Assembly (NCBI RefSeq): GCF_047555085.1
Contig: NZ_CP180230.1
Location: 810,001 to 842,000 of the forward strand
Length of the DNA stretch: 32,000 nucleotides
Reading direction: 5' to 3'
Source: Candidatus Saccharimonadota bacterium
Lineage (GTDB): Archaea > Nanohalarchaeota > Nanosalinia > Nanosalinales > Nanosalinaceae
Under the pieces are notes generated by a model. That model did no database searches. It was not told where the DNA came from and worked only from the letters and a program-made list of their open reading frames with translations. The position numbers and the translations under genes are program-made. Shown in pieces: positions 1 through 32,000 of the stretch (positions are counted from its first letter, which is position 1; each line of letters opens with the position of its first letter).

Positions 1-146
1 CAAGAATGATCGCAGTCTCAATGAAAAATCAGGACAGCAACAAGATCAACCTGACGATGAGACAGCCAGGCCTCGGAAAAGAGGAATGGATCGAACTTTA
101 CGAAGAAGAACAGGCAGAAGAAGACGACGAAGAAGGTGACAACTAG
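1..146 (+). CDS. rpoE: 3' end of RNA polymerase subunit Rpo7 (RpoE'); the 5' part lies outside the window
   Basis: The frame ending at TAG 144-146 reads ...RMIAVSMKNQDSNKINLTMRQPGLGKEEWIELYEEEQAEEDDEEGDN*. LTMRQPGLGK-EW matches the conserved C-terminal S1-domain end of archaeal Rpo7. It lies directly upstream of spt4, as in the conserved archaeal rpoE-spt4 arrangement. Confidence 0.65.
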   Translation, partial: RMIAVSMKNQDSNKINLTMRQPGLGKEEWIELYEEEQAEEDDEEGDN

Positions 147-148
147 AT

Positions 149-337
149 ATGGCAGAAAAAGCTTGTTCCGAATGCCACAGACTTGTAGAAGAGTCAACAG
201 AATGCCCTATCGACAAGAACAACGATTTAAGAAGTAACTGGAGCGGCTTAGCCGTTATATACGATCCAGAAGACTCAGAAATCGCAGACAAACTAGGCGT
301 AAGCGTCGCAGGACGATACGCGATCAGTGTAAGGTGA
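149..337 (+). CDS. spt4: Transcription elongation factor Spt4 (RpoE'')
   Basis: 62 aa. CSEC...ECPID zinc-ribbon-like N-terminus followed by NWSGLAVIYDPEDSEIADKLGVSVAGRYAISV, the typical Spt4 NGN-binding signature. Position after rpo7 fits. Confidence 0.8.
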   Translation: MAEKACSECHRLVEESTECPIDKNNDLRSNWSGLAVIYDPEDSEIADKLGVSVAGRYAISVR

Positions 338-348
338 AAAAATAATTT

Positions 349-789
349 ATGGAAGTTCAAATTGAATCAGTACGAGAAAATCCTCTTCTGGAACGCAGAC
401 AGGTAACACTGGCTGTAGACCATGAAGACGATTCAACCCCAAGTAGAGAAGATATCAAAAGCAGATTCGCTGCTGAAAACGCAGTCGACGAAGAAAAAAT
501 CGAAGTAGGCACAATCCACACAGGATTCGGCCGAAACTCTTCGAAAACAGAGCTTAAAGTCTACGAAGAATTCGATTACAGCGAAGATCTTGAAGAAGAG
601 GCCTCTACAACTTCAGAGACAGTTGAAGTAACTGAAGAATACGAGGAAATCGTCGCAGGAACAATCACAGATGCAAAAGACGCAATCAACGATCTTGAGG
701 ATCCTGACTACAAGGCCTTGATCGAGGCAGAAGTAGAGAACAAAAACCGCACAACACTAGTTGACTGGCTTGAAGGCCAGATGGAGTGA
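349..789 (+). CDS. rps24e: Ribosomal protein S24e (eS24) with an acidic C-terminal extension of about 70 aa
   Basis: The N-terminus MEVQIESVRENPLLERRQVTLAVDHEDDSTPSREDIKSRFAAE...IHTGFGRNSSKTELKVYEE matches the S24e family. It lies upstream of S27ae, as in the conserved S24e-S27ae pair. The tail (about 580-786) is extra. Confidence 0.85.
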   Translation: MEVQIESVRENPLLERRQVTLAVDHEDDSTPSREDIKSRFAAENAVDEEKIEVGTIHTGFGRNSSKTELKVYEEFDYSEDLEEEASTTSETVEVTEEYEEIVAGTITDAKDAINDLEDPDYKALIEAEVENKNRTTLVDWLEGQME

Positions 790-795
790 TTCAAG

Positions 796-942
796 ATGGG
801 AAAGAACGCTAACGTAGCAATCTACGAGAAGTACAACGAAGACGGGACATTCAACGGAGAAAAATGCCCTGTCTGCGGAAGCTTCCTGGCAGAACACGAC
901 GACAGGAAAAGCTGCGGCAAGTGCGGCTACACACAGCACTAG
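796..942 (+). CDS. rps27ae: Ribosomal protein S27ae (eS31), 48 aa; too short for the supplied ORF track
   Basis: Hand translation: [48 protein letters not shown]. It has the CPxCG...H.DR.SCGKCGY zinc ribbon typical of S27ae. ATG 796, TAG 940-942. Confidence 0.85.
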
Positions 943-1016
943 GGCCTCTAAATTTACAGGCCTCTCAATCTTTTCATCATATCTCTTAACGTTTTTCTCA
1001 CAAACATTTTCTCATA

Positions 1017-1997
1017 ATGAAAGTTCTTGGTATTGAGTCCACTGCTCATACGCTTGGAGTAGGGATAGTAGATGAGGATGATGTCCTTGCCAACAAGAAG
1101 TCGATGTACAAGCCTGAGGAAGGAGGTATTCATCCACGGAAGGCCTCAGAGCATCATTATCAGCATGCCTTGGAGGTATTGAATAATGCTCTTGATAAAG
1201 CGGGCCTTGAAGAGGAGGATCTGGATGCCGTGGCTTTTGCTCAGGGGCCTGGTATACCGCAGTGTCTGGAGATAGGGGCTGTTATGGCGCGGAGTATTGC
1301 GGAGCGTTACGATCTGAAGTTGATCGGTGTCAATCACTGTTTATCTCATATCTCGATCGGCACCAGAACGACTGAAGCTGAAAATCCGACTACGCTGTAC
1401 GTTTCTGGCGGGAACAGCCAGATAATCGAGTACAGGAATGGACGTTACAGGATAATTGGAGAGACTCTGGATATCGCTCTGGGAAATGCCTTGGACAAGT
1501 TCGCTAGAAAACTTGGATATCCGCATCCCGGCGGACCTGAGATCGAAAAGTTAGCGGAGAAGACTGACGATATAATTGAATTAAGTTATCCCATCAAGGG
1601 CATGGATTTCTCTTTTTCAGGCCTGACAACAGAGGCCGAGAGAAAGATCGGAGAAGTATCGGATGAGGTGCTTGCCAACAGTTTCCAGGAACACGCATAC
1701 TCTGCCGTGGTGGAGGCACTGGAAAGAGCGATGGCGCAGGAAGGCAGCAACGAGGCCCTTCTCACAGGAGGAGTAGCGATGAACTCCCGGCTTAGAGAGA
1801 TGGTGGAAACTATGTGCGAGCAGCGAGATGCAGAAGCTTACTTCCCTCCTGCCGAGTTCTGTATGGACAACGGAGCCATGATCGCACACCAGGGACTTGT
1901 TGAACTGAAAGACGGAAGAGGAACAAAGATAGATGATTCAGGTAAGAGGCCTGACTGGAGGCCTGACGAGGTGGAAGCAACATGGATAGAGAAATAG
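1017..1997 (+). CDS. kae1: Kae1, tRNA N6-adenosine threonylcarbamoyltransferase (KEOPS catalytic subunit), not fused to Bud32
   Basis: 326 aa. Has LGIESTAHTLGVGIV, VNHCLSHI (metal-binding His pair), LYVSGGNSQ and CMDNGAMIA motifs of the Kae1/TsaD/OSGEP family. Confidence 0.9.
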   Translation: MKVLGIESTAHTLGVGIVDEDDVLANKKSMYKPEEGGIHPRKASEHHYQHALEVLNNALDKAGLEEEDLDAVAFAQGPGIPQCLEIGAVMARSIAERYDLKLIGVNHCLSHISIGTRTTEAENPTTLYVSGGNSQIIEYRNGRYRIIGETLDIALGNALDKFARKLGYPHPGGPEIEKLAEKTDDIIELSYPIKGMDFSFSGLTTEAERKIGEVSDEVLANSFQEHAYSAVVEALERAMAQEGSNEALLTGGVAMNSRLREMVETMCEQRDAEAYFPPAEFCMDNGAMIAHQGLVELKDGRGTKIDDSGKRPDWRPDEVEATWIEK

Positions 1998-2569
1998 AGA
2001 AACAGATTGAAGAAGCCAAAAAAGTGATTGAAGATGGTGGAATAGTAGTTTTCCCGACTGAGACAGCGTACGGCATAGCCGCAGATGTGACTGATGAAGA
2101 AGCCGTGGAGAAAGTTTACGAGGCGAAGCAGAGGCCTCGAAGCAAGGGATTGACGGCCATAGTTGATTCTCTGGAGACCGCGGAACAGTATGCAGATCTT
2201 TCAGAGAGTGAAAAGAAGATTATCAGAGAGTTCATGCCAGGACCATTGACTCTTGTAGCCGGGAAAAAGGATAGTGTTCCAGATAATCTTAACGAAGATT
2301 TCGCATTCAGGATTTCCTCTGGAGAGGTCGCGGATGAGCTTTCAGAGGTTGGACCTATCACCGCTACTTCTGCGAATATCTCCGGTAACGAGACTTCTTA
2401 CTCTGTAGAGGATATTTCAGATGAACTGCTTGAGGAAGTTGATTACGTGATTGATGCCGGAACTCTGAGTAAAGGCCCTACTTCAACGATAGCTGAAGTT
2501 GTAGAGGGAGAAGTAGTGGTGCATCGAGAGGGACCTATTAAGAAGAAGGAATTAGAAAAAGTAATCTAG
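1982..2569 (+). CDS. sua5: Sua5/YrdC-type threonylcarbamoyl-AMP synthase (YrdC domain only)
   Basis: 195 aa. Has VVFPTETAYGIAADVTDEEAVEKVYEAKQRPRSKGLTAIV and TATSANISG motifs. It overlaps the kae1 3' end by 16 nt. Confidence 0.85.
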   Translation: MDREIEKQIEEAKKVIEDGGIVVFPTETAYGIAADVTDEEAVEKVYEAKQRPRSKGLTAIVDSLETAEQYADLSESEKKIIREFMPGPLTLVAGKKDSVPDNLNEDFAFRISSGEVADELSEVGPITATSANISGNETSYSVEDISDELLEEVDYVIDAGTLSKGPTSTIAEVVEGEVVVHREGPIKKKELEKVI

Positions 2570-2571
2570 GG

Positions 2572-4233
2572 ATGGCTACAGGCTTTGAATCAATCGCACT
2601 GCTGATAGGTACAGCAACCCTGCTGGGAATCTTAGCACAGAAAACACACCAGCCGAAAGTCATAGCTTATATTCTGGCCGGCCTAGTCATGGGACCAGTA
2701 GGCCTGAGCATTGTTAGCGGAGGAGAGATGGTCAGCCTGTTTTCAGAGCTCGGACTTGTCTTTTTACTCTTTCTAATAGGCCTGGAAATCGATCTCGATG
2801 AAATCAGAGAAGTACTGGGATCAACTATCGGAATTGCAGTTATTCAGATGTTCCTAACTTTTCTTGCAGGCCTTGGAATAGCTACAGGCCTTGGATTTGA
2901 CACAGTCACAGCTGTATTTATCGGGGCGGCCGTGATGTTCAGTTCGACAGCGCTTGTAGTAAAAATACTTACGAAACGAGATGAGGCCTCTACACTTCCT
3001 GGACGGCTTGACGTAGGTGTTTTACTGGTACAGGATGTTGCTGTTGTTATAATACTTGCTTTACTTACTGTAAACTTCTCTGATCCTGTACAGGCAGGTA
3101 TAAAGCTTCTTGAAATATTCCTGATGATCTCAGTTGTCGGAGTTCTTTCTCTGGCCTCTTCAAGATATGTTTTTTCACGCGTACTGAAGAAAATATCAGG
3201 CAACTCTCTGGCATTCTTTACACACGGAGTTGCATGGGCCTTCCTGTTCATCACGATTGCAGATCACTTGAATCTTTCACTGGAGATCGGAGCTTTCCTG
3301 GCAGGAATCGGGATTGCACAGGTGCCTTACAGCCGGGAACTACAGGAAAGCGTAAGGCCTCTGACAGATCTTTTCATGGCTATATTCTTCATGAACTTCG
3401 GCATCAGTATCGCCGGAGGTTCAATCCAGCAGTATCTAGGAGAAGCAGTTATAGCGTCAGTACTGCTGATAGCTGCCAAGTTCATCATACTTTTCCTTAC
3501 CATCGACAGGTTCAAGTTCACTCCTGAAACCAGTTTCAAGGCCTCTGTGAATATGGGACAGATCAGCGAGTTCGGGCTTATACTGACAAGTCTGGCAGTG
3601 ACAGAAGGATACATAGACTCCGGTATCTCGGGCTTCATCAGCATGGTCGCTATCCTCACGATGGGAACTTCGGCATACCTGATCCGGTATAGAGACAGTC
3701 TTGAAGAGTTCTTCCATCCTGTACTCCGCTTCTTCCAGTCGGAGGCGAAACAGGACCTTGAAATCGAGAAACTGAATAATCACGCAGTGATAATAGGATA
3801 CGACGAAGTGTCAAGAAGAGTCTGCAGAGAGCTTTCAGAGGACTACAGGATACTTGTGATCGACAACAATCCGGATAACGTTGAGGAGCTTTCTGAATCA
3901 GAGTACAAATATATTTACGGCGATTTCAAACACGGCGAAATACGTAAAGGAGCCAATCTAGAGCAGGCAGACTTCATAATCAATTTCACAAGAGAAAAAG
4001 AGATCAACACCGTCCTACTGGAAGAGAGAAACGAGGATACAGTTGTAATAACAGAGACAAGAAGCTTTGAAGAGGCCTCTGAAATGTACGACCTGGGCGC
4101 AGACTACGTAATAATGGAGAACGTCCTGGCAGGCAACCGGATAAGCGAGTATCTTGAACTGTACCTTGAGGACAGAGATCTTTTCCTGGAGGAGATAAAG
4201 GACGATCTTGGCGATTCAAGCGATGAAAGTTAA
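2572..4233 (+). CDS. Kef-type CPA2 cation/proton antiporter with C-terminal RCK/TrkA-N-like domain (paralog 1)
   Basis: 553 aa. About 12 hydrophobic segments with Na_H_exchanger-type motifs (AYILAGLVMGP, ELGLVFLLFLIGLEID, GAFLAGIGIA). The cytoplasmic tail HAVIIGYDEVSRRVCRELSEDYRILVIDNNPDNVEEL is Rossmann-like. Confidence 0.85.
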   Translation: MATGFESIALLIGTATLLGILAQKTHQPKVIAYILAGLVMGPVGLSIVSGGEMVSLFSELGLVFLLFLIGLEIDLDEIREVLGSTIGIAVIQMFLTFLAGLGIATGLGFDTVTAVFIGAAVMFSSTALVVKILTKRDEASTLPGRLDVGVLLVQDVAVVIILALLTVNFSDPVQAGIKLLEIFLMISVVGVLSLASSRYVFSRVLKKISGNSLAFFTHGVAWAFLFITIADHLNLSLEIGAFLAGIGIAQVPYSRELQESVRPLTDLFMAIFFMNFGISIAGGSIQQYLGEAVIASVLLIAAKFIILFLTIDRFKFTPETSFKASVNMGQISEFGLILTSLAVTEGYIDSGISGFISMVAILTMGTSAYLIRYRDSLEEFFHPVLRFFQSEAKQDLEIEKLNNHAVIIGYDEVSRRVCRELSEDYRILVIDNNPDNVEELSESEYKYIYGDFKHGEIRKGANLEQADFIINFTREKEINTVLLEERNEDTVVITETRSFEEASEMYDLGADYVIMENVLAGNRISEYLELYLEDRDLFLEEIKDDLGDSSDES

Positions 4234-4288
4234 TAAAAAACGGAGAAAAGTACCGAAAGAATAGATCTGATTTAAGAGGCCTCAAAGT

Positions 4289-5974
4289 ATGATAGCTAAT
4301 ACAACGCTACCGGTGGAACTGACGCTTGTTATAGTGACAGCTACAGTTCTCGCCGTCGTTGCCAGAAAGCTGAAACAGCCTGTGCTTCTGGCTTATCTGC
4401 TTACAGGCCTTGTTCTTGGCCCTGCTCTCCTGAACATTGTCGGCGGCACTAGAACTCTTACTTTGATGTCGGAACTGGGCCTTGGTTTTCTTCTATTTCT
4501 TGTTGGTATCGAGATGAATCTTGATGAGATCAGGGATCTGCTTAAGCCCATATCTGTGATAGCTGTGGGACAGACGATACTTCAGACAGGTCTTGCCTTT
4601 GTAGTTCCTCTGGCTCTTGGATTCGGGTTTTTTGAAACAGTTATAATCGCTTTATGTACTGTTTTCGGTGCAACACCGGTAATTGTGAAGATTCTGACAG
4701 AAAAGGATGAGCTGAAGAGTCTGCCCGGGAAACTTGATGTTGGAGTGCTTGTTCTGCAGGACATATATCTTATCCTGATAGTGGCCTTGATCAACTCGGG
4801 CACCCTTACACAGCCAGATCAGATACTTGGTACACTGGCAAAGATAGTGGCCTTGATCGGTGTTATAGGAGTTATCTCTCTGGCTTCTTCACGCTACATA
4901 CTTGACGATATCTTCAAGCAGATAGCTGACAACCGGCATGCATTCTTCATACACGGAGTTGCATGGGCCTTCCTGTTCATCACACTGGCAGAGTTCATGG
5001 GACTGTCTGTCGAGGTAGGTGCATTCCTGGCAGGCCTTGGTCTTGGACAGATACCTTACAGAGAGGAGATAAAGGAGCGTATAAGGCCTCTGACGGATTT
5101 CTTCATGGTTATATTCTTCTCTACACTGGGCCTGACACTGTCAGTCGAGAATCTTCAGGCTTACTGGGTTGAGGCAATTTTGGCTTCCGGTGTCATGATG
5201 ATAGGGAACTTCGTGATAATGTTTTACCTGATTGACAGGATGAAGTTCACGCCGAGGACATCGTTCATAGGCAGCATCAATATGACACAGGTCAGCGAGT
5301 TCTCACTTGTTGTAGGAGCGCTGGCTGTCCAGCAGGGCTATATCGGGAACGACGTACTTGGATACATCAGTTTGATGGCGGTTTTCACGATTGGTCTTTC
5401 GACTTACCTGATTAACTATAACAAGGAGATTTACCAAAAAATTGAACACCTGCTTGAATGGCTGGAATCGGAGGAGAAGAAAGACGTGGAGATTAACCAG
5501 CTGGAAGATCATGCAGTGATTGTTGGATACGATGAGATTTCAGAGAAAATCTGCAGAACGCTTGAAAGAGAACATGATATACTCGTGATAGACCAGAACC
5601 CCGACAACACAGAAGTATTGAGCCGTTCACCGTACGAGTACATCTACGGAGACTTCAAACACGGCGAAATACGGGAAGGAGCAAATCTCGAGGGAGCAGA
5701 GTTCATAATCAGTTTCTCGGATGAAAAAGACGTCAACCTGAAAGTACTGGAAGAGCAGACAGATAACGCCATAAAGATAGTAACAGCTAAACGACTCGAA
5801 GAGGCCTCTGAAATGTACGACCTGGGCGCAGACTACGTAATAATGGAGAACATCCTGGCAGGCAACAGGATCGGAGAGTACCTGGAACTATACCTCGAGG
5901 ACAGAGAGCTCTTCAGAGAGGAAGTGAAATCTGAAATCAAACATATCAAAGGTGAAGAACGATCTCAGAACTGA
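4289..5974 (+). CDS. Kef-type CPA2 cation/proton antiporter with RCK-like domain (paralog 2)
   Basis: 561 aa, collinear with paralog 1 over its full length by eye. Same motifs (AYLLTGLVLGP, ELGLGFLLFLVGIEMN, GAFLAGLGLG, HAVIVGYDEISEKICRTLEREHDILVIDQNPDN). Confidence 0.85.
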   Translation: MIANTTLPVELTLVIVTATVLAVVARKLKQPVLLAYLLTGLVLGPALLNIVGGTRTLTLMSELGLGFLLFLVGIEMNLDEIRDLLKPISVIAVGQTILQTGLAFVVPLALGFGFFETVIIALCTVFGATPVIVKILTEKDELKSLPGKLDVGVLVLQDIYLILIVALINSGTLTQPDQILGTLAKIVALIGVIGVISLASSRYILDDIFKQIADNRHAFFIHGVAWAFLFITLAEFMGLSVEVGAFLAGLGLGQIPYREEIKERIRPLTDFFMVIFFSTLGLTLSVENLQAYWVEAILASGVMMIGNFVIMFYLIDRMKFTPRTSFIGSINMTQVSEFSLVVGALAVQQGYIGNDVLGYISLMAVFTIGLSTYLINYNKEIYQKIEHLLEWLESEEKKDVEINQLEDHAVIVGYDEISEKICRTLEREHDILVIDQNPDNTEVLSRSPYEYIYGDFKHGEIREGANLEGAEFIISFSDEKDVNLKVLEEQTDNAIKIVTAKRLEEASEMYDLGADYVIMENILAGNRIGEYLELYLEDRELFREEVKSEIKHIKGEERSQN

Positions 5975-5988
5975 TTAACGTACTGACT

Positions 5989-7608
5989 ATGGTATTTGTA
6001 GCATCATCAATAGTACTTTTCCTGTTCGACAGATTCTCGCATCCTGCTCTGCCAGCGTATATAATCGCAGGAGTTATCGTAGGAAACTTCTTCCCGGCAG
6101 ATGAAATGATAAACTTCACTCAGATAGGCCTCTCATTCCTTGTATTCATATTCGGAGTAAAGATGGATCCGGAAAGACTGAAATCAGTAGCCGGAGACGG
6201 CCTCAAGACCGCTGCAGTCCAGATAACAGCAGTATCAGTTCTTGCAGTAGGCCTCTCCATGATAATGAATCTTTCAGGATTCGAGACGCTTGTTTTCGTC
6301 CTGGCAACTGCATTGAGCTCTACTCTTGTAGGACTTGACTTGCTGGAGAAAGAGATCGATCTGAAGCTGGCGCACGGACGTCTTGCGGAGTCGATCCACT
6401 TGAGTCAGGATCTTATCGCTGTAATGTTCCTGATGATACTGGGAGCATCAGCTTTCACATTTGAAGCAGTCTCACAGAGCTTTATCCATGGATTTGGCGT
6501 GCTAGCTCTTGCACTTCTATTCAGAAAGTATGCTCTCGATCATCTTGCTGATCTTACAGAGAACTCCCGTGAGCTACTGATGCTTGTATCCATAACTATA
6601 CTGATCGGCTTCCTGGGCCTGACCGAATACTTCCAGATTTCGCTCGCTATCGGAAGCTTTGCAGCAGGCCTCGCCGTCTCAAAGTATCCGCACAACATGG
6701 AAATCCTTGATACAACAGGATCGCTTAAAGATTTCTTCTCGGCAATCTTCTTCGTCTCCCTAGGTGCTCTGCTAACAGTTCCAACACCACAGGTACTGAT
6801 AATGTCCGCAGTAATGCTTGTACTGACAGTTATAGGCAAGCCGTTCGCAGTCATCACCTCTCTTGTCGCCCTGGGGCAGAACAAACGTACAGCATACCTT
6901 ACAGGATTCAGCATCGATCAGGTCTCTGAATTTGCACTTATAATAACAATACAGGCCTATATTTCAGGCCTGATAGGCGGAACAGTTTTCCAGGCCGTTA
7001 TAATAACAGCTACAGTCTCAATGATGATATCATCCTATACAGCAAAGCATGGGGACAGGATATACAATCTGCTGTCCGAACATGATCATATAGAGGCCTT
7101 TGGAGATAAAGAGGAGAGATCGAAGCACAATCTGGAGGATCACGTTATCGTTGTAGGCCACGATACTCAGGGAAAGAGAATCATCGAGACTTTGCGTGAT
7201 GAAGAAAAAGAATACATCGTGATAGACAACGATCCTGAGAAAGTTACAGATCTGAAGGAGAAAGGTGAGAACTTCGTCTTCGGGGACGTTATGGAGATAG
7301 ATACATGGGAACGTGCAGATTACCGTGAGGCCTGTCTGATAATATCCACAGTCCCTCTAGAGAAGACTTCAAGAAAGATTCTATCCCTTCCAACAGATGC
7401 GGACAAGATACTGAGAAGTGAAGATATAGAGGAGGCTGAAAAGCTGCTGGAAGATGGTGCGATCTACGTTAACGTGCCTGAAGTACTGAGCGCCGAACTT
7501 CTTCCGGATCATATCGAAGGCCTGATGGAGAACAGGCGTTACAGAGAGGATCTCAGGAGACGGAACATGCTGGAGGTAAGGAAGTACCTGCAGAATCTTG
7601 AAGGATGA
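5989..7608 (+). CDS. Kef-type CPA2 cation/proton antiporter with RCK-like domain (paralog 3, more diverged)
   Basis: 539 aa, multi-TM, with AYIIAGVIVG, GSFAAGLAVS and a C-terminal HVIVVGHDTQGKRIIETLRDEEKEYIVIDNDPEKV Rossmann-like segment. Confidence 0.8.
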   Translation: MVFVASSIVLFLFDRFSHPALPAYIIAGVIVGNFFPADEMINFTQIGLSFLVFIFGVKMDPERLKSVAGDGLKTAAVQITAVSVLAVGLSMIMNLSGFETLVFVLATALSSTLVGLDLLEKEIDLKLAHGRLAESIHLSQDLIAVMFLMILGASAFTFEAVSQSFIHGFGVLALALLFRKYALDHLADLTENSRELLMLVSITILIGFLGLTEYFQISLAIGSFAAGLAVSKYPHNMEILDTTGSLKDFFSAIFFVSLGALLTVPTPQVLIMSAVMLVLTVIGKPFAVITSLVALGQNKRTAYLTGFSIDQVSEFALIITIQAYISGLIGGTVFQAVIITATVSMMISSYTAKHGDRIYNLLSEHDHIEAFGDKEERSKHNLEDHVIVVGHDTQGKRIIETLRDEEKEYIVIDNDPEKVTDLKEKGENFVFGDVMEIDTWERADYREACLIISTVPLEKTSRKILSLPTDADKILRSEDIEEAEKLLEDGAIYVNVPEVLSAELLPDHIEGLMENRRYREDLRRRNMLEVRKYLQNLEG

Positions 7609-12443: not shown

Positions 12444-12526
12444 AACAAAAGGCCTCCACCACATATCACACAAAACTTTTCTTCCTCCACGCCCAGACAG
12501 GCCTCAGAAAAGGCCTGAAAAACTCT

Positions 12527-12600
12527 GGGCCGGTAGCTCAGTCTGGCAGAGCGCTTGGCTCTTAACCAAGAGGTCGCGGGTTCAAATCCCGTCTGGCCCA
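12527..12600 (+). tRNA. tRNA-Lys (anticodon CUU)
   Basis: Folded by hand. Acceptor GGGCCGG/CTGGCCC, anticodon stem CTTGG/CCAAG with loop CTCTTAA (anticodon CTT), T arm GCGGG-TTCAAAT-CCCGT, discriminator A. No encoded CCA. Confidence 0.85.
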
Positions 12601-12654
12601 AACTTCTGAAAGTTTGATCATCACAAGGCCCGACACAGCAGGCCTTTCAGAAAT

Positions 12655-18325: not shown

Positions 18326-18418
18326 AACCTCTCCTAATTTAAAACTTCCAAGAAACTATTCAATTATAGAGGCCTCTCAACTTTGAGGCCTTGACTTAAG
18401 CAAATACATAGAGTATTT

Positions 18419-18505
18419 GCCGGGATGACAGAGTGGCTAATTGTGCCGGTCTTGAGAACCGGTGACCCATATGCGGTCTCCTGGGTTCAAATCCCAGTCC
18501 CGGCG
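18419..18505 (+). tRNA. tRNA-Ser (anticodon UGA), class II with long variable arm
   Basis: Acceptor GCCGGGA/TCCCGGC, anticodon stem CCGGT/ACCGG with loop CTTGAGA (anticodon TGA), a long variable arm, T arm CTGGG-TTCAAAT-CCCAG, discriminator G. Confidence 0.85.
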
Positions 18506-18580
18506 TTTCACGCCTTTTCTGGGATTTTTCAAATCGACGAAAATCTTAGATTTTCTGGAGACACAGAAGCTTGTCAGAGC

Positions 18581-20295: not shown

Positions 20296-21228
20296 ATGAG
20301 CCTATTCAAGGACCTGAACAGACTTATCAGCAATACTAAGGAGCTTCTGGAGACTATCAAACAGGACGAGGGGAAAGAAGGGAAGGAGATAACTCATTCT
20401 GAGAAGCTGGAGCAAATGATCGATGACGGCCAGCTTACACGTGAAAATGTTCAGGAGCTTGTAAACGAGCAGAAACAGGAAGTTCAGGGAATGGGCAAGA
20501 TCGTCAGCGAGCTTACAGAAGCCACGGAGATGACAGAGGAGCAGATCCAGATGCTGGCCCAGATAATCCAGCAGATCGGAAGTCAGGAGAACAACACGGA
20601 CAACAAAATGAATAATATAGACGAGATTTTGCAGGAGATGTCTCAGAACGGCGTCAGCTCTGATCTAGTGAATATGCTGCTGGGCGAGCTTGATGAAGTA
20701 GCTGATCAGATCAAACAGGAGGCAGATGAAGAGGAAGAAGCCGGAAAAGACGCTGAAGAGATCGGACGTGAAGAGGAGATAGAGGCCAAAGAGGAAAATC
20801 AGGCTGCAGGAGAGATGTCCGAGCTTGAATCTGAGACCGAGCATGCTGATGAAGAGGCTCAGGCAGCCGGGAACAAACAGTGGGATGAAAACGAAAAAGA
20901 GATGGAGAGTACTGAAAGTCAGGAAGCAGATCAGCTCAAGGAAGATATCTCCCGATCCAAAAAAGAAGAAGACCAGCTTGAAGAACTGGCAGAAGAAGGA
21001 GAAGCAGAGGCAGAACACACATCTGAAGAAGCACAGCATCTTGAAGAAGAGGCAGAAGAAGCACGATCAATGATAGAAGGAAGCCCTGCCGACTCTCAGG
21101 AAGTGGAAAATGAGCTGGATAGCGTGGAGAACGAGGCCGAACAGGCAGCGGCAGAGGCCTCTGATGCAGCTCAGGAGTTCAGCGCGGCAGAAAACGAAGC
21201 CGAACAGGCGGAGAAGGCGGAACCATAG
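20296..21228 (+). CDS. Hyper-acidic Glu-rich low-complexity/coiled-coil protein
   Basis: 310 aa. The C-terminal two thirds are dominated by E, A, Q and D, with ENEAEQA appearing twice. The alternative-frame ORFs here are frame shadows of GAA/GAG repeats. Confidence 0.6.
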   Translation: MSLFKDLNRLISNTKELLETIKQDEGKEGKEITHSEKLEQMIDDGQLTRENVQELVNEQKQEVQGMGKIVSELTEATEMTEEQIQMLAQIIQQIGSQENNTDNKMNNIDEILQEMSQNGVSSDLVNMLLGELDEVADQIKQEADEEEEAGKDAEEIGREEEIEAKEENQAAGEMSELESETEHADEEAQAAGNKQWDENEKEMESTESQEADQLKEDISRSKKEEDQLEELAEEGEAEAEHTSEEAQHLEEEAEEARSMIEGSPADSQEVENELDSVENEAEQAAAEASDAAQEFSAAENEAEQAEKAEP

Positions 21229-21640: not shown

Positions 21641-21713
21641 CAGTCATCTCATAGAGGAGAAGACTGAAATTGAAAATCCTGAGGATTTTCAGCTTACACG
21701 CAGGGAAACAGAT

Positions 21714-21786
21714 AGCCCCCTGGTGTAGTGGCCAATCATGAGAGGCCCTGGCCCTCTCGACGCAGGTTCGAATCCTGCGGGGGCTA
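21714..21786 (+). tRNA. tRNA-Gln (anticodon CUG), with an atypical anticodon loop
   Basis: Acceptor AGCCCCC/GGGGGCT with A73, and the A1-U72 pair typical of archaeal tRNA-Gln. Anticodon stem AGAGG/CCTCT with loop CCCTGGC. T arm GCAGG-TTCGAAT-CCTGC. It aligns column by column with the Gln-UUG gene at 23874. Confidence 0.7.
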
Positions 21787-21850
21787 AATACTTTTTCTGT
21801 ACAGTTTGTCGCGGATAGTTTCAAAAGACAGGCCTTCCAATCTAGGTTCT

Positions 21851-23825: not shown

Positions 23826-23873
23826 GCCTGAGTATTTCTTAAGAGTTGAAGCGATAAAGACTGTATAACGGAT

Positions 23874-23946
23874 AGCCCCGTAGCATAGTGGTCAAGTGCA
23901 CCAGCCTTTGGAGCTGGCGACCCCGGTTCGAATCCGGGCGGGGCTA
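23874..23946 (+). tRNA. tRNA-Gln (anticodon UUG)
   Basis: Acceptor AGCCCCG/CGGGGCT with A73, anticodon stem CCAGC/GCTGG with loop CTTTGGA, T arm CCCGG-TTCGAAT-CCGGG. Confidence 0.85.
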
Positions 23947-23989
23947 ACCTGAAAAAGTGGTTTAAGATTGAGGCCTCTACTTCTTTTCT

Positions 23990-25791: not shown

Positions 25792-26364
25792 ATGAACGTT
25801 GAAACAGTAGAGGAAAACGACGATGTTCTGAAGTTGAGAGTTGAAGGCGTAGATGAAGCAGTAGCTAATGCTCTACGCAGATCGATGATTACAAAGGTTC
25901 CAACTCTTGCAGTCAAACACCTTGAAGTTTCAAGGAATGATTCAGGCCTCTTCGACGAAGTAATCGCCAATAGGGTAGGACAGATTCCTTTCACAATACC
26001 AGAAAATGTTGAAGAAGACGACGAAGTTCACGTAGCTATTTCTCAGGAAGGTCCTGGGAAAGCTGTCGCAGGAGACATTCAGGCCGACAACGATGAAGCC
26101 GAGCCTGTTAATCCTGGCGCTGAGATAGTTAGCCTGAAGGAAGATCAGGCACTGGAGTTTGAAGGAGTAGCTGTACTTGGCCGGGGAGATGAACACGCCA
26201 AGCATCAAGGAGGAACAGTTGGATACGAGAAAGTTGAAGATGGTGAATACATCTTCCGAATCGAGTCCACTTCCGGCTACAGCAACACCGAACTCTTCAA
26301 CGAGGCAATCAATCAAGTTCAGAACGAGCTTGAAGAGTTTGAAGACTTCGTCTCAGATCTTTAA
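25792..26364 (+). CDS. rpoD: RNA polymerase subunit D (Rpo3), short 190-aa form
   Basis: LKLRVEGVDEAVANALRRSMITKVPTLAV, NDSGLFDEVIANRVGQIPF, GRGDEHAKHQ, FRIESTSGY. Conserved position after rps11. Confidence 0.85.
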   Translation: MNVETVEENDDVLKLRVEGVDEAVANALRRSMITKVPTLAVKHLEVSRNDSGLFDEVIANRVGQIPFTIPENVEEDDEVHVAISQEGPGKAVAGDIQADNDEAEPVNPGAEIVSLKEDQALEFEGVAVLGRGDEHAKHQGGTVGYEKVEDGEYIFRIESTSGYSNTELFNEAINQVQNELEEFEDFVSDL

Positions 26365-26612
26365 TTCTTATTTAACTCTTCCTTAATTCTCCTATAATTC
26401 TTATCTGCTTATAGGCCTTTTTCTACTACAGTACAGCATTTTGCACAGGCCTTGGTCGAAAAGACACATCCAGAAAGGGTATCGGATAGGTTTTATATAC
26501 AGGCCTTTCGAACAATTGTATAACAGGCTGGAAGCGTCAAATCTTACGGTGATTTTATCACTTGCATTTAGTGATTTTTGGCTTCCAGGATATCAATCGG
26601 TAATGGGTAAAC

Positions 26613-29600
26613 ATGTCGAGTAAGATAAGAAACAAGTCAAGAGAATTAGTTTTTCTGGCAGTTATTCTTCTAGTCGTACCTCTCTCGTTTGCAACTGTCA
26701 CACTTACCTCAGACACTATAATTGAACAGACAGGTAACGATGCTGAGATTGTTGTTCAGGAGGATTTCAATGTTTCACAGCTTTCAGTTTACGATAACGC
26801 CACCGAGTTCGGTCAGACAAATTTTTCTCTACCTCACACTGGTTCGAACTTGATCCAGGCCAATATGACAAAGTTCAACGGCAGCGTCAATGAAGGGGAG
26901 ATTTTGACAGATTTCAAGGCTAATGCTTCAAGTGGAGAAACACTTACTATAGATCTAGCTAACTTGACCAGAAGAATGTACTACAGAGTATACGTTGACG
27001 GGCTCGGATATGCTAACAGGTCCTCAGGCGATCAAGGAGATTATTCATACAGTTTGGATTATAACAGCAACGAGTTCAAGGATATATACATTAAGGCCGA
27101 AGCTCAGGACACTATCAGTCATTCTGCATCATTTACTGATGGATTGACATATTCTCCTAATACTTCAATGAACGTACTTGGTTCTGGACAGTACAAGATC
27201 TCGAATGACGCTGTTTCAGGAGCAAACGTTTCTATTTACAGAGATGGATCATTCATTGAGTCAGTTACAACAGATCAGAACGGAGAGTACAGTCCTAACC
27301 TTGTCAGTCCTAAGATTGCAGGTACACACAGCTACGATCTTAACATGTCTCAGCACCATCTTTTCGATAATGTGGATAGAGAGGTAACAGTTGACTCGCT
27401 ATTTATCGAAAATCCTAACGTAACTTCTCTCAACAGAGACAGCAGATACATTGATATCGATGAAGAAGCAGCTCTTAACATCTCTGCTAAAGTATATAGG
27501 AACAAGGAAAATCCTATAGATTCTGTAACATACACTATCCACGACGATCCTAGCAGCCCTCCAATAACTTCGACTTTTGAGAGCTGGGCTAGCTTGAAGA
27601 ACACAAGTGCAAAGACAGAGACGCAGACATGGTACAATACTACTCCTGCTCTATCCGACAAAGAAGGATTCGGAGATCTAGGAAACTACACTATCCGTTT
27701 CCGTGCAAGCTCAACTTTGAACGGAGAGACAATCAATATCGAAGATAATCCGGAGTTCAATATTACAATTCAAGACGTGGACATGAACTTGGAGCTTGAT
27801 GAGTCAAGCTACAGTACAAACAACGATGATTATGTCAACATATCAGGTAGAGTAATCAGACAGCCTGATGGCGAAGTTCTGAACAACACAGATGTCGATC
27901 TGCGTATATATGATAACGAAACAGGAGATAACTTCCAGGTAGCAACCGTAACAACAAATGAGACAGGACATTACTCATATGACTATAACTTTGTGGATGA
28001 AAACGGCGTAAGAAAAGTTGAAGCTACAGCAGAAGATTCTAAAGGAATTGGAGGTAACGAAAGCAAGATATTTACCGTAACTGAACTTTCTATAGACAGT
28101 ATAGAGTACTCTGACTCCTACGAACGCCACGAATACAATATAAGTGCTTTAGTAAGCGATTCACGCGGAATATCTAACCACGAATGTAGCCTTACAGTTT
28201 CTGATAGCTCAGGGAACTCAGTAGACTACAATATGAGCCTGGATAATAATACAGGAAACAGCAACACTGCATACTGTAGGCAGCCTTACATTAACTACGA
28301 GAACAGTTCCAACTGGAGTGCAACAGAGGATCTCACAGCCGAGATTAGAGTTGAAAACGGATCTACTTATGCAACATCAACCTCATCCAGAGCACTTCCA
28401 AATACAGATCCTCAGACAGGAAGCTTTACCGTAGATGAAATCGAGAAGAAATATGCAGCTGATGTGCAGGCAGTAGCAGAAGATCCTAACGAGGGATCAG
28501 ATGAGATAGAGGCCTGTACAGTATATTATTACAATGAGGCTGGAGAAGAGTACTCTGTAGAAGGCAATCTTGATACGTCCTACGGTGCTACTGATGAGGC
28601 CTCATGTAGTTACACTGTTGACTCTAGTCTTGAAGGCCTGAGTTCTGGTGAGAACGTGGATATCGCTGTATCCTTCATGGATAAGCATGGGGGAACAGGC
28701 ATGACTTCGAACAAGACTGCTACATTACAGGCCACACTCACATTCGAGGGAGATGTAAGAACTCTAAACGGATCTGCTCCTAGCACCACAATAGAGTTCT
28801 ACGATCCTGGTACAAGTAATGTTGTAACATCCCTCCAGGATGATAATGGCGACGTCACAGGTACTGTTGCCAAAGGAACGTACGATATGAATGTTATCAC
28901 AAAGTATGGAGAGGTAGAGTTCAATAGAGCTGAAATAACAAATGATACTAGCTTCCTGCTCGAGGTTGAGCCAAAGATTACAGAGCAGTACGATGATGGT
29001 ATTCCAGAGCAGTGGGCAAGAGAAGAGTCTCACATCGCTGTAAGTGATATTGATGTAGCATATGATAATGCCACAGTCCGTATGGATTACAGTGGCCTAG
29101 ACGAGGGATACATCGCACCTTGGACATGTAAGGAATGGAACGAGGATCCTAATTACAGGGCCTGTCAGGAAGAAACATTCCCATACGATCAGCTTGAGTA
29201 CAGTCCTGCAGATAACTATGATCTGGACACAGGGAACAACATGGTTGAGATAGGTACAAGCAACTCTGAAGGAGCATACGTACTTGCCTCAAACAGAGGA
29301 TGGAGAACAGACTGGTTCTGGAGAAAGGAAATAACCATCGAGGGAGGACAGAAGGATCTTGAGAATTACCAGGTCAAGATCAGTGTAAACACCAAGGAAT
29401 ACATACTGAACGAGAATCTTGACAGCTCCTGCAACAACCTGAGGTTCTACAACACAGATCAGACAAAGCAGGTGGATTACTGGATGGAACCTGGCACATG
29501 CAACACACAGAATACAGTATTCTGGGTTGAGATGCCTTACATCCCAGCCAATTCAGACAGAACAATCTTCATGTATTACGAGCGAGATAAAGATCTTGCA

Positions 29601-32000
29601 TCAGCAAGCTCCGGAGAAGAGACATTCCTGGCCTTCGATGAGTTCGATACAAACAGCAGTTCAAACTATGAGACAGCAGGACTTACACGTATAGAAGATG
29701 ATAGACTAAGAGTAAGATCTCAGGACGGAGAAGAGGCCTCTGTAAGATACACAGACAAGAACTTTGAATCACCTTACAGAACTCATTCAAGAGTTAGAGC
29801 TGATGGAAGCAGCGATAGAGCAACTGTCTCAACATACCTAGACTCTGCAGATGCTGTATCATACAACATAAATGAAGGCCTGTTCAAGGAATCCTTCACT
29901 GATGCTTCCAGCTCCCACACTATAGATACAAGCGACTGGATTGATGTAACTCAGACAGTTACATCCGGAGAACAGACAGTGAATGTTGAACCTGCTGGAG
30001 AAAGCCTAAGCATCTCAGGCAATCTTTCATCAGGAAGCTACAGTCCATTCGGCGCAAGCATCAATGATAGTTCAGATACATTGAGCACTCTTGATGTTGA
30101 AAGATGGTTCACTACAAAGTATGCTAGCTCAGAGCCTACGGTAAGAAGTATCAATACTGAGAAACTATGGGAACTATCCCTGAACGGATCAAGCAGGGAT
30201 GTAAACGTTCCTCTTGACTCTGTTGTAAATATTGAGCTAAACTCAAGCGATTACAAGTCACCAGTAATCATCTACAAGAATGATTCAGTCATCGCTGAGT
30301 CTGATGGTGGTGTAGAGGGAATATTCTACAGAGAAAGTAATCTAAACGAGAGAGCATCCTATCCTATCAGAGCTGAGATCGATGAGTTCAACGAAACAAT
30401 TATCTACGATATTACAGTTGGACAGGACGACCTATCACCTAATGTATCCCTTCAGAACCAGGAACGAATAGGCACCAACAAGATGAACTTCAGCTATGAG
30501 GTTAAAGATAACTATCAGGGTTCCGTAGAGTGTTCACTGGCCATTGATGGAGATGTTAAGGCCCAGTCCCGTGTAGATCTGGATCTAGATAAGACATGGT
30601 ACAGTAGTTCATTCTATACTGAAGATGCTCCTCATGGTGCAAACAGTTACAATATCAGCTGTACAGATAACTCAAACAATACAGCAAGCTACATCGGGCA
30701 GTACGATCAGGATTTCAAGGCCCCTGAAATAGAGTTCACCAATCTTGAAGATGGACAGGATATATGGCAGTACAAGCCTCAGGTCAAGCTGAATATTGTG
30801 GATACTCACAGCGAGGAAATTGACTACAATGTATACTACGCATATGACGAAGACATGAACACAGCTAACACAACTAGTAACAACACTGTGGAGACAGTAA
30901 GGTTGCCAACTACCACTCGCTGGGGACTGGTAGACTTTGTAGTAGAGGCTGAAGACGACAAGAATCAGTCCAGAACAAAGTCAATTACTGTAGATCTCAA
31001 CGAGCCTTACGTTGATCTAATCAGTCCTGCAGAAGGGAACGATGAAAAGCGAGTACAGCACAATCCTAGCGAGCCAGGTAACAGAGAAGTACTACCAGAA
31101 ACCAGAGTTCAGAGACAGGATCCAAATGTTGTATTTGAGTTCAATTACACGGATCAGATACAGGACTCCACACAGTGTAGACTAATGGTTGACGGAACAG
31201 AGAAGGCAAATGGAACATACGCAACAAATACACCAGGAACATTCGATGTAACACTTGATCAGGGAATAAATCAGGAAGCTCACGTTGAATGTGAGAACGA
31301 AGTAGGCAACTACATCTCAAGCACCACAAGACATCTAGATATTGATTCAAATGATCCTTCAGTTGAAGCCGTAATATTTGAACAGGGCAACAACACCGCA
31401 TACACAGAGACAAAGGAGCATGAAGTCGATATAAGAATCTCCGATAATCTCATGGCTCCTGCGACATCACAGTCATTCTCAGGGAGAAGCAGATATGGTT
31501 CCTGTAATAAGGGCACAAGTACAGAACAGTATCCATTCCTTGAGATAAACGGCACTGACAACGCAATTAGTATGAGCCATAACTTTGACGGAGCAACAAA
31601 GAACGAGACTGTCCAGTTAGAAAGAGAAAGTTATGTATACGGTATAGCATCACTCCCTACACTTTTCAGCGGATGTAGCTACAACACCGCTACAGAACCT
31701 CTTGACTATGTTACAGAGAACTTCGGAAATCTCGGTGCTGGAGAGTACAACTTTGAGATGTGGGTACAGGATGAAACGGGTAACAGCATCAGCACAAAAC
31801 AGTATACTTACACAGTAGCTAAAGGAGATCCTGGAATATCTCTGTCCTCAGATAATGATAGAGCAAGCAACAATGAGATTATCAGAGACTCAAGCCCTGA
31901 GATCAGATGTTCAGCCTCTACAGATCAAGTAAGCACCACACTACTGAGAAACGGTCTTGAAGTAGACTCAGCGACAAACGGCGAGGATGTCCTTCAAGAC
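26613..32000 (+). CDS. 5' part (1796 codons, open at the window end) of a giant secreted or anchored surface protein with beta-sandwich modules and a DUF2341 plus jelly-roll core
   Basis: An in-frame TAA at 26601-26603 is followed by ATG 26613, the first possible start. I translated the frame by hand through 32000 and found no stop. The N-terminus MSSKIRNKSRELVFLAVILLVVPLSFA looks like a signal peptide or anchor. It is not in the supplied track because no stop occurs in the window. The other five frames here carry only short ORFs. Confidence 0.88.
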   Translation, partial: MSSKIRNKSRELVFLAVILLVVPLSFATVTLTSDTIIEQTGNDAEIVVQEDFNVSQLSVYDNATEFGQTNFSLPHTGSNLIQANMTKFNGSVNEGEILTDFKANASSGETLTIDLANLTRRMYYRVYVDGLGYANRSSGDQGDYSYSLDYNSNEFKDIYIKAEAQDTISHSASFTDGLTYSPNTSMNVLGSGQYKISNDAVSGANVSIYRDGSFIESVTTDQNGEYSPNLVSPKIAGTHSYDLNMSQHHLFDNVDREVTVDSLFIENPNVTSLNRDSRYIDIDEEAALNISAKVYRNKENPIDSVTYTIHDDPSSPPITSTFESWASLKNTSAKTETQTWYNTTPALSDKEGFGDLGNYTIRFRASSTLNGETINIEDNPEFNITIQDVDMNLELDESSYSTNNDDYVNISGRVIRQPDGEVLNNTDVDLRIYDNETGDNFQVATVTTNETGHYSYDYNFVDENGVRKVEATAEDSKGIGGNESKIFTVTELSIDSIEYSDSYERHEYNISALVSDSRGISNHECSLTVSDSSGNSVDYNMSLDNNTGNSNTAYCRQPYINYENSSNWSATEDLTAEIRVENGSTYATSTSSRALPNTDPQTGSFTVDEIEKKYAADVQAVAEDPNEGSDEIEACTVYYYNEAGEEYSVEGNLDTSYGATDEASCSYTVDSSLEGLSSGENVDIAVSFMDKHGGTGMTSNKTATLQATLTFEGDVRTLNGSAPSTTIEFYDPGTSNVVTSLQDDNGDVTGTVAKGTYDMNVITKYGEVEFNRAEITNDTSFLLEVEPKITEQYDDGIPEQWAREESHIAVSDIDVAYDNATVRMDYSGLDEGYIAPWTCKEWNEDPNYRACQEETFPYDQLEYSPADNYDLDTGNNMVEIGTSNSEGAYVLASNRGWRTDWFWRKEITIEGGQKDLENYQVKISVNTKEYILNENLDSSCNNLRFYNTDQTKQVDYWMEPGTCNTQNTVFWVEMPYIPANSDRTIFMYYERDKDLASASSGEETFLAFDEFDTNSSSNYETAGLTRIEDDRLRVRSQDGEEASVRYTDKNFESPYRTHSRVRADGSSDRATVSTYLDSADAVSYNINEGLFKESFTDASSSHTIDTSDWIDVTQTVTSGEQTVNVEPAGESLSISGNLSSGSYSPFGASINDSSDTLSTLDVERWFTTKYASSEPTVRSINTEKLWELSLNGSSRDVNVPLDSVVNIELNSSDYKSPVIIYKNDSVIAESDGGVEGIFYRESNLNERASYPIRAEIDEFNETIIYDITVGQDDLSPNVSLQNQERIGTNKMNFSYEVKDNYQGSVECSLAIDGDVKAQSRVDLDLDKTWYSSSFYTEDAPHGANSYNISCTDNSNNTASYIGQYDQDFKAPEIEFTNLEDGQDIWQYKPQVKLNIVDTHSEEIDYNVYYAYDEDMNTANTTSNNTVETVRLPTTTRWGLVDFVVEAEDDKNQSRTKSITVDLNEPYVDLISPAEGNDEKRVQHNPSEPGNREVLPETRVQRQDPNVVFEFNYTDQIQDSTQCRLMVDGTEKANGTYATNTPGTFDVTLDQGINQEAHVECENEVGNYISSTTRHLDIDSNDPSVEAVIFEQGNNTAYTETKEHEVDIRISDNLMAPATSQSFSGRSRYGSCNKGTSTEQYPFLEINGTDNAISMSHNFDGATKNETVQLERESYVYGIASLPTLFSGCSYNTATEPLDYVTENFGNLGAGEYNFEMWVQDETGNSISTKQYTYTVAKGDPGISLSSDNDRASNNEIIRDSSPEIRCSASTDQVSTTLLRNGLEVDSATNGEDVLQD

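Follow-up and report, generated by a model that had tools for sequence, protein, structure and literature searches.

The stretch of DNA analyzed here, referred to as the window, comprises 32,000 nucleotides (positions 810,001 to 842,000 of contig NZ_CP180230.1, assembly GCF_047555085.1) and ends inside one very large gene, which encodes a giant surface protein with a DUF2341 domain. On the plus strand the ATG at position 26613 starts a run of 1,796 sense codons that stays free of stops through base 32000, is preceded by an in-frame stop followed by W-V-N, and specifies a product that begins MSSKIRNKSRELVFLAVILLVVPLSFA. An earlier note, made from the letters alone, had described this frame and the start of its product in the same terms, and the translation of the window between 26550 and 32000 bears it out. 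The remaining five frames contain 82 to 177 stops over the same 5.4 kb, and with a stop probability of 0.062 per codon, calculated from the local base composition, 1,796 open codons would arise by chance with a probability of ~10^-50. The list of open reading frames (ORFs) that accompanied the sequence contains across these 5.4 kb only four short antisense ORFs of 83-103 amino acids (aa), the note having remarked on short ORFs, most of them antisense. The giant frame is missing from the list because it overruns the end of the source, and the ORF lister by design leaves out ORFs without an end inside it, which is the reason that had been suspected.

The 1,796-aa fragment is identical (100%, over the full fragment length) to P0001, a 3,075-aa protein deposited at NCBI as 'DUF2341 domain-containing protein [Candidatus Nanosalina sp. 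VS9-1]', an organism placed under Candidatus Nanohaloarchaea. The frame thus belongs to a genuine protein, 3,075 residues long, secreted and surface-located, of the small symbiotic salt-lake archaeon Candidatus Nanosalina, in keeping with the earlier guess of a small, possibly symbiotic halophilic archaeon. The complete gene has 9,228 nt, of which the window carries the first 58% (first 1,796 of 3,075 codons, 26613..32000, plus strand), and its stop codon is expected near window coordinate 35840, ~3.8 kb past the window end; the C-terminal modules accordingly lie outside the window, as had been foreseen. The giant size is confirmed, while the 'big share of the coding capacity' once attributed to the gene comes to ~0.9% of the 1,046,238-bp contig.

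Five further proteins of 3,078-3,103 aa are colinear with P0001 at 33-58% identity, and an exhaustive HMMER search contributed two more orthologues of 3,145 and 3,167 aa, giving seven in total, all of them intact; one 3,103-aa orthologue is also encoded in the nanohaloarchaeal metagenome-assembled genome (MAG) NHA29. The eight sequences come from different assemblies (NCBI, ENA/TARA, Logan and JGI) and keep an uninterrupted frame of 3,075-3,167 aa. Since the orthologues are intact in independent assemblies, neither a frameshift artefact nor a series of smaller genes can account for the frame, two of the objections that the earlier note had raised against itself, and an artefactual or fused ORF is likewise rejected.

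Upstream of the giant gene the window carries genes for a peptidyl-prolyl isomerase (PPIase), for S13, S4 and S11 of the ribosome and for subunit D of RNA polymerase (RpoD). The giant gene directly follows S13-S4-S11-RpoD in four of the four orthologue contigs examined (L001, L003, L015 and L016). The order downstream, read from the orthologue contigs and not from P0001's own contig, is conserved as well and consists of an oppositely oriented ORF of 114-115 aa, dCTP deaminase, an ORF of 184 aa, aspartyl-tRNA synthetase (AspRS), a hydrolase, SMC, ScpA, ScpB and NFACT. Judged by its genomic context, the giant gene is a vertically inherited, fixed-position core gene of the Nanosalina lineage and not part of an island. 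Its G+C content is 0.41-0.45 (window 26001-32000) as compared with 0.45-0.49 across the upstream 10 kb, and the third-position value is also low (0.41); the composition of the product, rich in N, S, T, Y, D and I, probably contributes to this, and recent transfer is disfavoured because the synteny is fixed. A mobile or viral origin was considered and ruled out by the fixed core-genome synteny together with the lack of viral relatives, none having been found for the C-terminal module B (described below) in the viral contigs searched.

The spacer between rpoD and the giant gene has 248 nt (26365-26612). In an alignment with the otherwise diverged orthologous spacer of L001 the sole long identical block is GTTTTATATACAGGCCTTTC (26490..26509, plus strand, ~115 nt upstream of the ATG), a promoter-like element that includes the archaeal TATA-box-like TTTATATA (26492-26499). 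The giant gene would thus appear to possess a promoter of its own. A transcript starting from the TTTATATA-containing promoter would carry a 5' leader of ~85-90 nt, and a T5 run at ~26419-26423 in the same spacer could terminate the ribosomal-protein/rpoD transcript.

The N-terminus of the product has the features of a Sec-type signal peptide (aa 1-27, cleavage SFA|TV; 26613..26693, plus strand): a basic n-region, a hydrophobic core of ~15 residues, Pro at -5 and S-F-A in front of the predicted site. The only hydrophobic segment of the 3,075 aa of P0001 is located here, at aa 8-37, and small residues at -3/-1 are kept among the orthologues (SFA in the window protein; SLA, ALG, SIA, SVA, GLG and GFS in others). 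The segment is therefore best regarded as a Sec signal peptide that would be cut by signal peptidase I, so that of the two functions proposed earlier, signal or anchor, the former is preferred. At the other end the chain reads ...GDRILGYSMYMDIK without a hydrophobic segment, and neither a C-terminal transmembrane segment (TM), a PGF-CTERM-like end, an ATPase nor a protease domain was found (Pfam on six orthologues; hydrophobicity of P0001).

The predicted mass is 340 kDa and the isoelectric point 4.1. The richness in N (8.6%), S (11.0%), T (9.2%), Y (5.4%) and D (8.7%) that had been noticed in the translated part is borne out by the measured composition, and there are 86 N-x-S/T sequons in the full protein, 52 of them in the window part. 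The 32 cysteines form 16 pairs with a spacing of 6-57 residues, and 28 of the 32 are invariant in six orthologues; being closely spaced and invariant, the pairs fit disulfide-stabilised extracellular modules. Self-comparison by BLAST revealed no internal repeats, which rules out a recent tandem-repeat protein; the chain is built of ~25-30 diverged units of beta-sandwich size, old and individually conserved, with no recent repeat array. Conservation peaks in the N-terminal 150 aa, in DUF2341 and, most strongly, over the last 500 aa, and the middle of the chain is the most variable part.

The conserved N-terminal domain (aa 28-195; 26694..27197, this and the following modules all on the plus strand) matches no family and has a mean pairwise column identity of 0.48-0.59 over aa 1-150; it may be a lectin-like beta-sandwich. 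It is followed by a CarboxypepD_reg-like or bacterial Ig-like beta-sandwich (aa 197-238; 27201..27326), recognized by PF13620 with 39.8 bits against a cut-off of 32.3 (E = 6e-10) in a scan of a 300-aa segment and more weakly in the whole-protein scan; CarboxypepD_reg was matched in four of six orthologues (best E = 2e-9). A second, weak CarboxypepD_reg/MG2-like beta-sandwich (aa ~410-456; 27840..27980) is sub-threshold in Pfam (E = 0.005-0.01). The first cysteine-paired module is Fn3/Ig-like (aa 497-556; 28101..28280) with the invariant pair Cys525/Cys555 and a sub-threshold match to PF24946. The DUF2341 domain itself (aa 940-1015; 29430..29657), with the invariant pair Cys940/Cys963, lies in a local conservation peak and is the firmest assignment of the chain: PF10102 scores 56.9 bits against a gathering cut-off of 23.4 (E = 3e-15) and is found in all six orthologues (best E = 2e-20). 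Near the window end there is a DUF4625/Big_13-like Ig module (aa 1652-1728; 31566..31796), sub-threshold in the window protein and matched in five of six orthologues by Big_13 (best E = 1e-6) and DUF4625 (best E = 3e-5); several modules, this one included, open with D-x-x-x-P-x-[IV]. Weaker Big_6, Big_13, DUF4625, Fn3-like and MG2-like matches are scattered over the chain. Among the families that had been suggested as targets, DUF2341 and CarboxypepD_reg were thus matched, while Laminin_G_3, CARDB and PKD gave no Pfam match and the PGF-CTERM-like hydrophobic end is absent; no member of the Laminin_G family was matched in the six orthologues at E <= 0.1. Sequence-profile searches of the PDB returned nothing for the whole protein or for the DUF2341 region with the part following it, and searches of NCBIfam and PADLOC returned nothing.

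The most conserved part of the protein lies beyond the window. A profile of the last 376 aa detected 1,196 proteins at E <= 1e-3 in a library of 1.84 billion proteins and showed that this part is a cassette divided in two, module A (aa 2709-2875) and module B (aa 2879-3075). P0001 has hidden Markov model (HMM) matches to both and ends in the motif Y-x-[LMIV]-[WYF]-[VLM]-[ED]-[LIV]-x, by which the cassette is defined. None of the Pfam, NCBIfam and PDB families covers either module. Module A is found inside many multi-domain secreted proteins. Module B mostly occurs as a free-standing protein of ~215-245 aa composed of a Sec signal peptide and the domain, and the module B of the giant protein aligns to these proteins from their mature N-terminus through the last residue. 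Where module B is terminal, its end lies within 2 residues of the C-terminus in 93 of 99 proteins, with a motif like TYNLWVEL, and a C-terminal TM is present in none of these 99 as against 21 of the 54 A-only proteins. In front of module B the B-terminal proteins carry unrelated N-terminal cargo: PLD-like with PKD domains, four PKD with GLUG domains, beta-helices, another DUF2341 protein and, in a protein from Micrarchaeota, an FBA lectin domain. A tail that stays constant while the cargo in front of it varies is characteristic of modules for sorting, docking or assembly.

The AlphaFold model of the cassette reached a predicted local distance difference test (pLDDT) score of 86.9 with an alignment of 102 sequences, the C-terminal 376 aa having been modelled at a pLDDT of only 41 with an alignment of six. 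The first ~45 residues of module B (P0001 aa 2879-2925) contain a strongly conserved GGN[IV]T-x-[AG]-N-L sequon motif and have a pLDDT of ~50, the rest of the module being above 90. A conserved lead-in modelled with low confidence is the pattern expected of a segment that would be ordered only upon contact with a partner.

The distribution of module B was followed by scanning contigs with a 13-sequence alignment. Genes encoding free-standing or terminal B were detected in MAGs of Nanohaloarchaeota, Aenigmatarchaeota, Undinarchaeota, Woesearchaeota, Micrarchaeota and Nanoarchaeota, and the copies are often multiple (three each in L007 and L009). B genes are also found in MAGs labelled 'uncultured euryarchaeote' or 'uncultured Methanosarcinales' (L006 and L007); either DPANN sequence was mis-binned in both cases or the B family reaches beyond DPANN.

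An all-against-all comparison of 12 DPANN loci (L004:9908-18464 and L010:965-13717 as well as L005, L007-L009 and L011-L014 being among the neighbourhoods delimited) showed that B genes have recurrent neighbours. The most frequent one, N1, is a protein of ~570 aa that combines a signal peptide with a C-terminal TM and a basic tail, has no Pfam match, is present in 10 of the 12 loci and usually adjoins B. In 5-6 loci there are also three large secreted proteins forming a trio: N4, with a B-like N-terminus (~540 aa), N2, with CARDB (~590 aa), and N3, with a NosD-like beta-helix (~780 aa); MoxR AAA+, DUF58 and VWA genes accompany B in 3-4 loci. We found no description of this gene cluster. Both arrangements of module B coexist in MAG NHA29, where the giant orthologue lies on L003 and the free-standing B with N4, N2, N3 and N1 lies on a separate contig, L004. 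On the latter a gene of the DsbB family (L004:7545-8120) is located ~1.8 kb upstream of the free-standing B gene; such a neighbour would fit the extracellular disulfide formation of cysteine-paired surface proteins.

Taken as a whole these data are best explained, with a probability that we put at about 0.6, by a secreted, glycosylated adhesion fibre whose C-terminal cassette would dock it to the cell envelope. The parts of this explanation do not stand equally firm. The signal peptide, the sequons, the cysteine pairs and DUF2341 make it very probable that the giant protein is secreted and exposed at the surface, in line with the cell-surface function proposed earlier; the S-layer role put forward along with it now looks unlikely, and an adhesion or host-contact role, as argued from the domain content and from comparison with related proteins, has the balance slightly in its favour. 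Docking by module B is a tentative proposal for which we would give somewhat less than even odds.

The protein would be exported by Sec and signal peptidase would cut off residues 1-27, leaving a mature chain without a membrane anchor. N-glycosylation and disulfide bonds would turn the chain into a semi-rigid fibre in which ~2,700 aa of beta-sandwich modules could extend over a distance of the order of 100 nm, and the A-B cassette would retain this fibre at the envelope. Module B would dock onto, or co-assemble with, a structure of small B proteins and the membrane-anchored N1, using the same contacts by which the free-standing B proteins would bind one another or N1. The conserved N-terminal domain and the DUF2341 region would face outward and might attach to the haloarchaeal host through its glycans or surface proteins, or to some other surface.

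Several observations weigh against this fibre model. N1, the N4-N2-N3 trio and free-standing B genes were not found within the 32-kb window, which was the part of the genome searched, and docking by module B is argued from architecture and gene neighbourhood. The cassette, though modelled with confidence, matches no solved or viral structure among those searched, which leaves it with no functional analogy. Cleavage of the signal peptide was judged by eye from inspection of the sequences. Both ends of the protein are conserved, which does not tell which end faces the host. A lectin domain at a significant level was not found and there is no Laminin_G match after DUF2341; the one hint, a match of the N-terminal domain profile to the 191-aa PDB chain 2V73, a 'putative exo-alpha-sialidase', is no more than marginal (E = 0.027). 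We take 2V73 to be the CBM40 sialic-acid-binding module of a clostridial sialidase, and regard it as a lead rather than as evidence.

The topology might be the reverse, with the N-terminal segment retained as an uncleaved signal-anchor and the A-B cassette forming a ligand- or host-binding head at the distal tip. The hydrophobic stretch, ~15-17 residues, is fairly long, in several orthologues it comes after a basic residue followed by Ala, Gly or Ser, the cassette is the most conserved part of the protein as would be expected of a functional head, and the same ambiguity between signal peptide and TM has been met in a study of a Micrarchaeon S-layer (bioRxiv 10.1101/2021.04.28.441871). Yet the small -3/-1 residues together with Pro at -5, present in all orthologues, are typical of signal peptidase I sites, and the behaviour of the modules in other proteins points the same way: B exists as a stand-alone secreted protein and is elsewhere fused behind enzymes and lectins that are themselves likely functional heads, and proteins with module A otherwise end in a TM anchor, which places their C-terminus at the cell. 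We consider the reversed orientation, the strongest of the alternatives, unlikely.

If the protein were not retained at all, it could be, instead of a specific adhesin, a shed glycoprotein of a matrix or capsule; such a protein would form a hydrated coat, protective or biofilm-like, of the kind suggested for halomucin, which has been cited as a giant sugar-binding haloarchaeal protein (PMC6642349). The lack of a membrane anchor and the extremely acidic, hydrophilic and sequon-rich chain would suit such a coat, but the chain is neither repetitive nor mucin-like: its modules are distinct, each conserved on its own and carrying paired cysteines, and they follow one another in a fixed order; moreover, the shared cassette and its gene linkage to a membrane-anchored partner speak for a protein kept on the cell. 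The chances of a shed coat are accordingly rated as low, below those of the reversed orientation.

In Methanococci the type IV pilus loci encode large proteins that have DUF2341 as their signature and have been proposed to sit at the pilus tip as adhesins (PMC4858521), and a tip adhesin of the MJ1470/arCOG03508 kind, incorporated through a pilin-like N-terminus, has to be weighed for this reason. There are, however, no pilus genes beside the giant gene in five contigs (the window, L001, L003, L015 and L016), its neighbours being ribosomal proteins, RpoD, dCTP deaminase and AspRS. When the N-termini were inspected for [KRDE][GA] directly before the hydrophobic stretch, the mark of a class III signal peptide, the window protein was found to read K-S-R-E-L-V-F-L, with Arg-Glu where [KR]-[GA] is required; some orthologues have R-A or K-G at the N-terminus, and the conserved feature is the -3/-1 motif of the signal peptidase I type. 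A pilus-tip function is therefore very improbable. Least credible of all is a SPEARE-class giant or the main S-layer protein, since the giant size, the nanohaloarchaeal host and the adhesion-type modules (PMC6642349), and the fact that S-layer proteins too are acidic, glycosylated and Sec-exported, are outweighed by the lack of a second hydrophobic segment and of an ATPase/helicase Pfam match in six orthologues, by the absence of a PGF-CTERM-like hydrophobic end or C-terminal TM, and by the size of the proposed DPANN S-layer proteins, which are unrelated and have ~1,000 aa, against 340 kDa here.

Comparison with the giant surface proteins of nanohaloarchaea, which the earlier note had recommended, reveals a similar size and presumed role and the absence of the defining features of SPEAREs. 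Lectin-like giant proteins have been proposed as nanohaloarchaeal host-contact factors, and SPEAREs have been defined by a TM toward the C-terminus with, behind it, a cytoplasmic region of the helicase/VirB4-like ATPase type, described as their most conserved part (PMC6642349, PMC10266531). With SPEAREs and related proteins (NAR1_1133, SVXNc_0300, BNXNv_0298) the Nanosalina protein shares the phylum, the giant size, the Sec signal, a long ectodomain of Ig-like and putatively lectin-like character and a proposed role in host contact. SPEAREs also have at least one laminin-G domain in the ectodomain; here the Pfam matches at E <= 0.1 include no Laminin_G family and the PDB profile search of the DUF2341 region gave nothing, the sole lectin-like trace being the marginal match to 2V73. 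It lacks their C-terminal TM, cytoplasmic ATPase and N-terminal beta-propellers, ending instead in a module of secreted proteins; it is not a SPEARE because the C-terminal TM and the ATPase are missing. Both kinds of giants can occur in one genome: contig L015, which encodes the orthologue P0004, carries at 1-7059, directly upstream of the PPIase-S13 cluster, a second giant gene of at least 3,983 aa with PQQ/beta-propeller, Big_13 and DUF4625 matches. The corresponding place in the window is taken by tRNA-Gln together with genes for an HD hydrolase and a Na/Ca exchanger.

The DUF2341 giants, that is MJ1470/arCOG03508 and the DUF2341/FhaB proteins of Patescibacteria, where DUF2341 also occurs in giant proteins (PMC11809585), resemble the Nanosalina protein in that the domain is part of a multi-domain protein which is secreted and very large and belongs to a cell that is small or depends on a host; these known giants have been proposed to serve in adhesion or host contact (PMC4858521, PMC11809585). 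The Nanosalina gene differs in its position outside a type IV pilus locus, in the lack of a class III signal and of a Laminin_G match beside DUF2341, and in the presence of the A-B cassette. The LamG/lectin proteins of cultivated nanohaloarchaea (such as SVXNc_0801-0831 and LC1Nh_0399-0401) are secreted as well, being lectin-type surface proteins that vary between strains and are thought to recognise the host; they are shorter, encoded in operons and strain-specific, whereas the Nanosalina gene is single-copy, conserved and fixed in a core position, with no LamG detected in its product. Two-domain tip adhesins such as FimH, in which a cargo domain is joined to a domain homologous to the free-standing structural subunit, and the secreted-plus-anchored envelope pairs of the SlaA/SlaB type provide analogies only. 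What recalls these systems is that the last domain of the giant protein has full-length homology to a secreted protein occurring on its own, the gene of which is linked to that of a membrane-anchored partner. No similarity in sequence or fold to pilins, SlaA, SlaB or any other PDB entry searched was seen, and assembly through module B is putative. A literature search on DUF2341 in nanohaloarchaea, on strain VS9-1 and on donor-strand or helical filaments in DPANN found nothing relevant.

The fibre may be one instance of a wider arrangement. The recurrent gene neighbourhood of module B raises the possibility, in our view a speculative one against which the odds clearly lie, of an undescribed DPANN-wide system for surface display or assembly, in which small B proteins and N1 would build an envelope structure or filament, often together with N4-N2-N3, and fusions of cargo to A-B would be mounted on it via module B, in analogy to a tip adhesin with a pilin-like domain. 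Besides the 340-kDa fibre, the cargoes on display would in that case include a PLD-like enzyme, proteins with beta-helices and an FBA lectin, and the fibre would be the reach-out adhesin of the Nanosalina cell.

Among the other genes of the window, a 310-aa ORF without a Pfam match (20296-21228), situated between a Na/H exchanger and an iron-dependent repressor, is kept in position and length in L001 (3279-4211). Four tRNA genes, on which ARAGORN and Rfam agree, lie on the plus strand: Lys-CTT (12526-12601), Ser-TGA (18418-18506), Gln-CTG (21713-21787) and Gln-TTG (23873-23949), both tRNA-Gln genes being scattered between genes for transporters and ribosomal proteins.

Nanohaloarchaea and other DPANN archaea need physical contact with their host cells, and attention has so far been directed to the SPEARE giants; to our knowledge, few of the molecules that make this contact have been recognized. 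That nanohaloarchaea possess giant surface proteins was known before, and the gene described here had been deposited, annotated only as a DUF2341 protein. What is new is a distinct class of giants, belonging to the core genome and devoid of an anchor, that ends in an uncharacterised DPANN-wide cassette, the last domain of which also exists by itself as a secreted protein whose genes have a conserved neighbourhood. The cassette defines two protein modules that currently have no family, structure or annotation and, being common to hundreds of DPANN secreted proteins, offers a testable hypothesis of how surface proteins without an anchor are displayed. The gene, conserved in the core genome of the Nanosalina lineage, represents a second, structurally different class of giant surface protein and a concrete candidate for a role in host contact.

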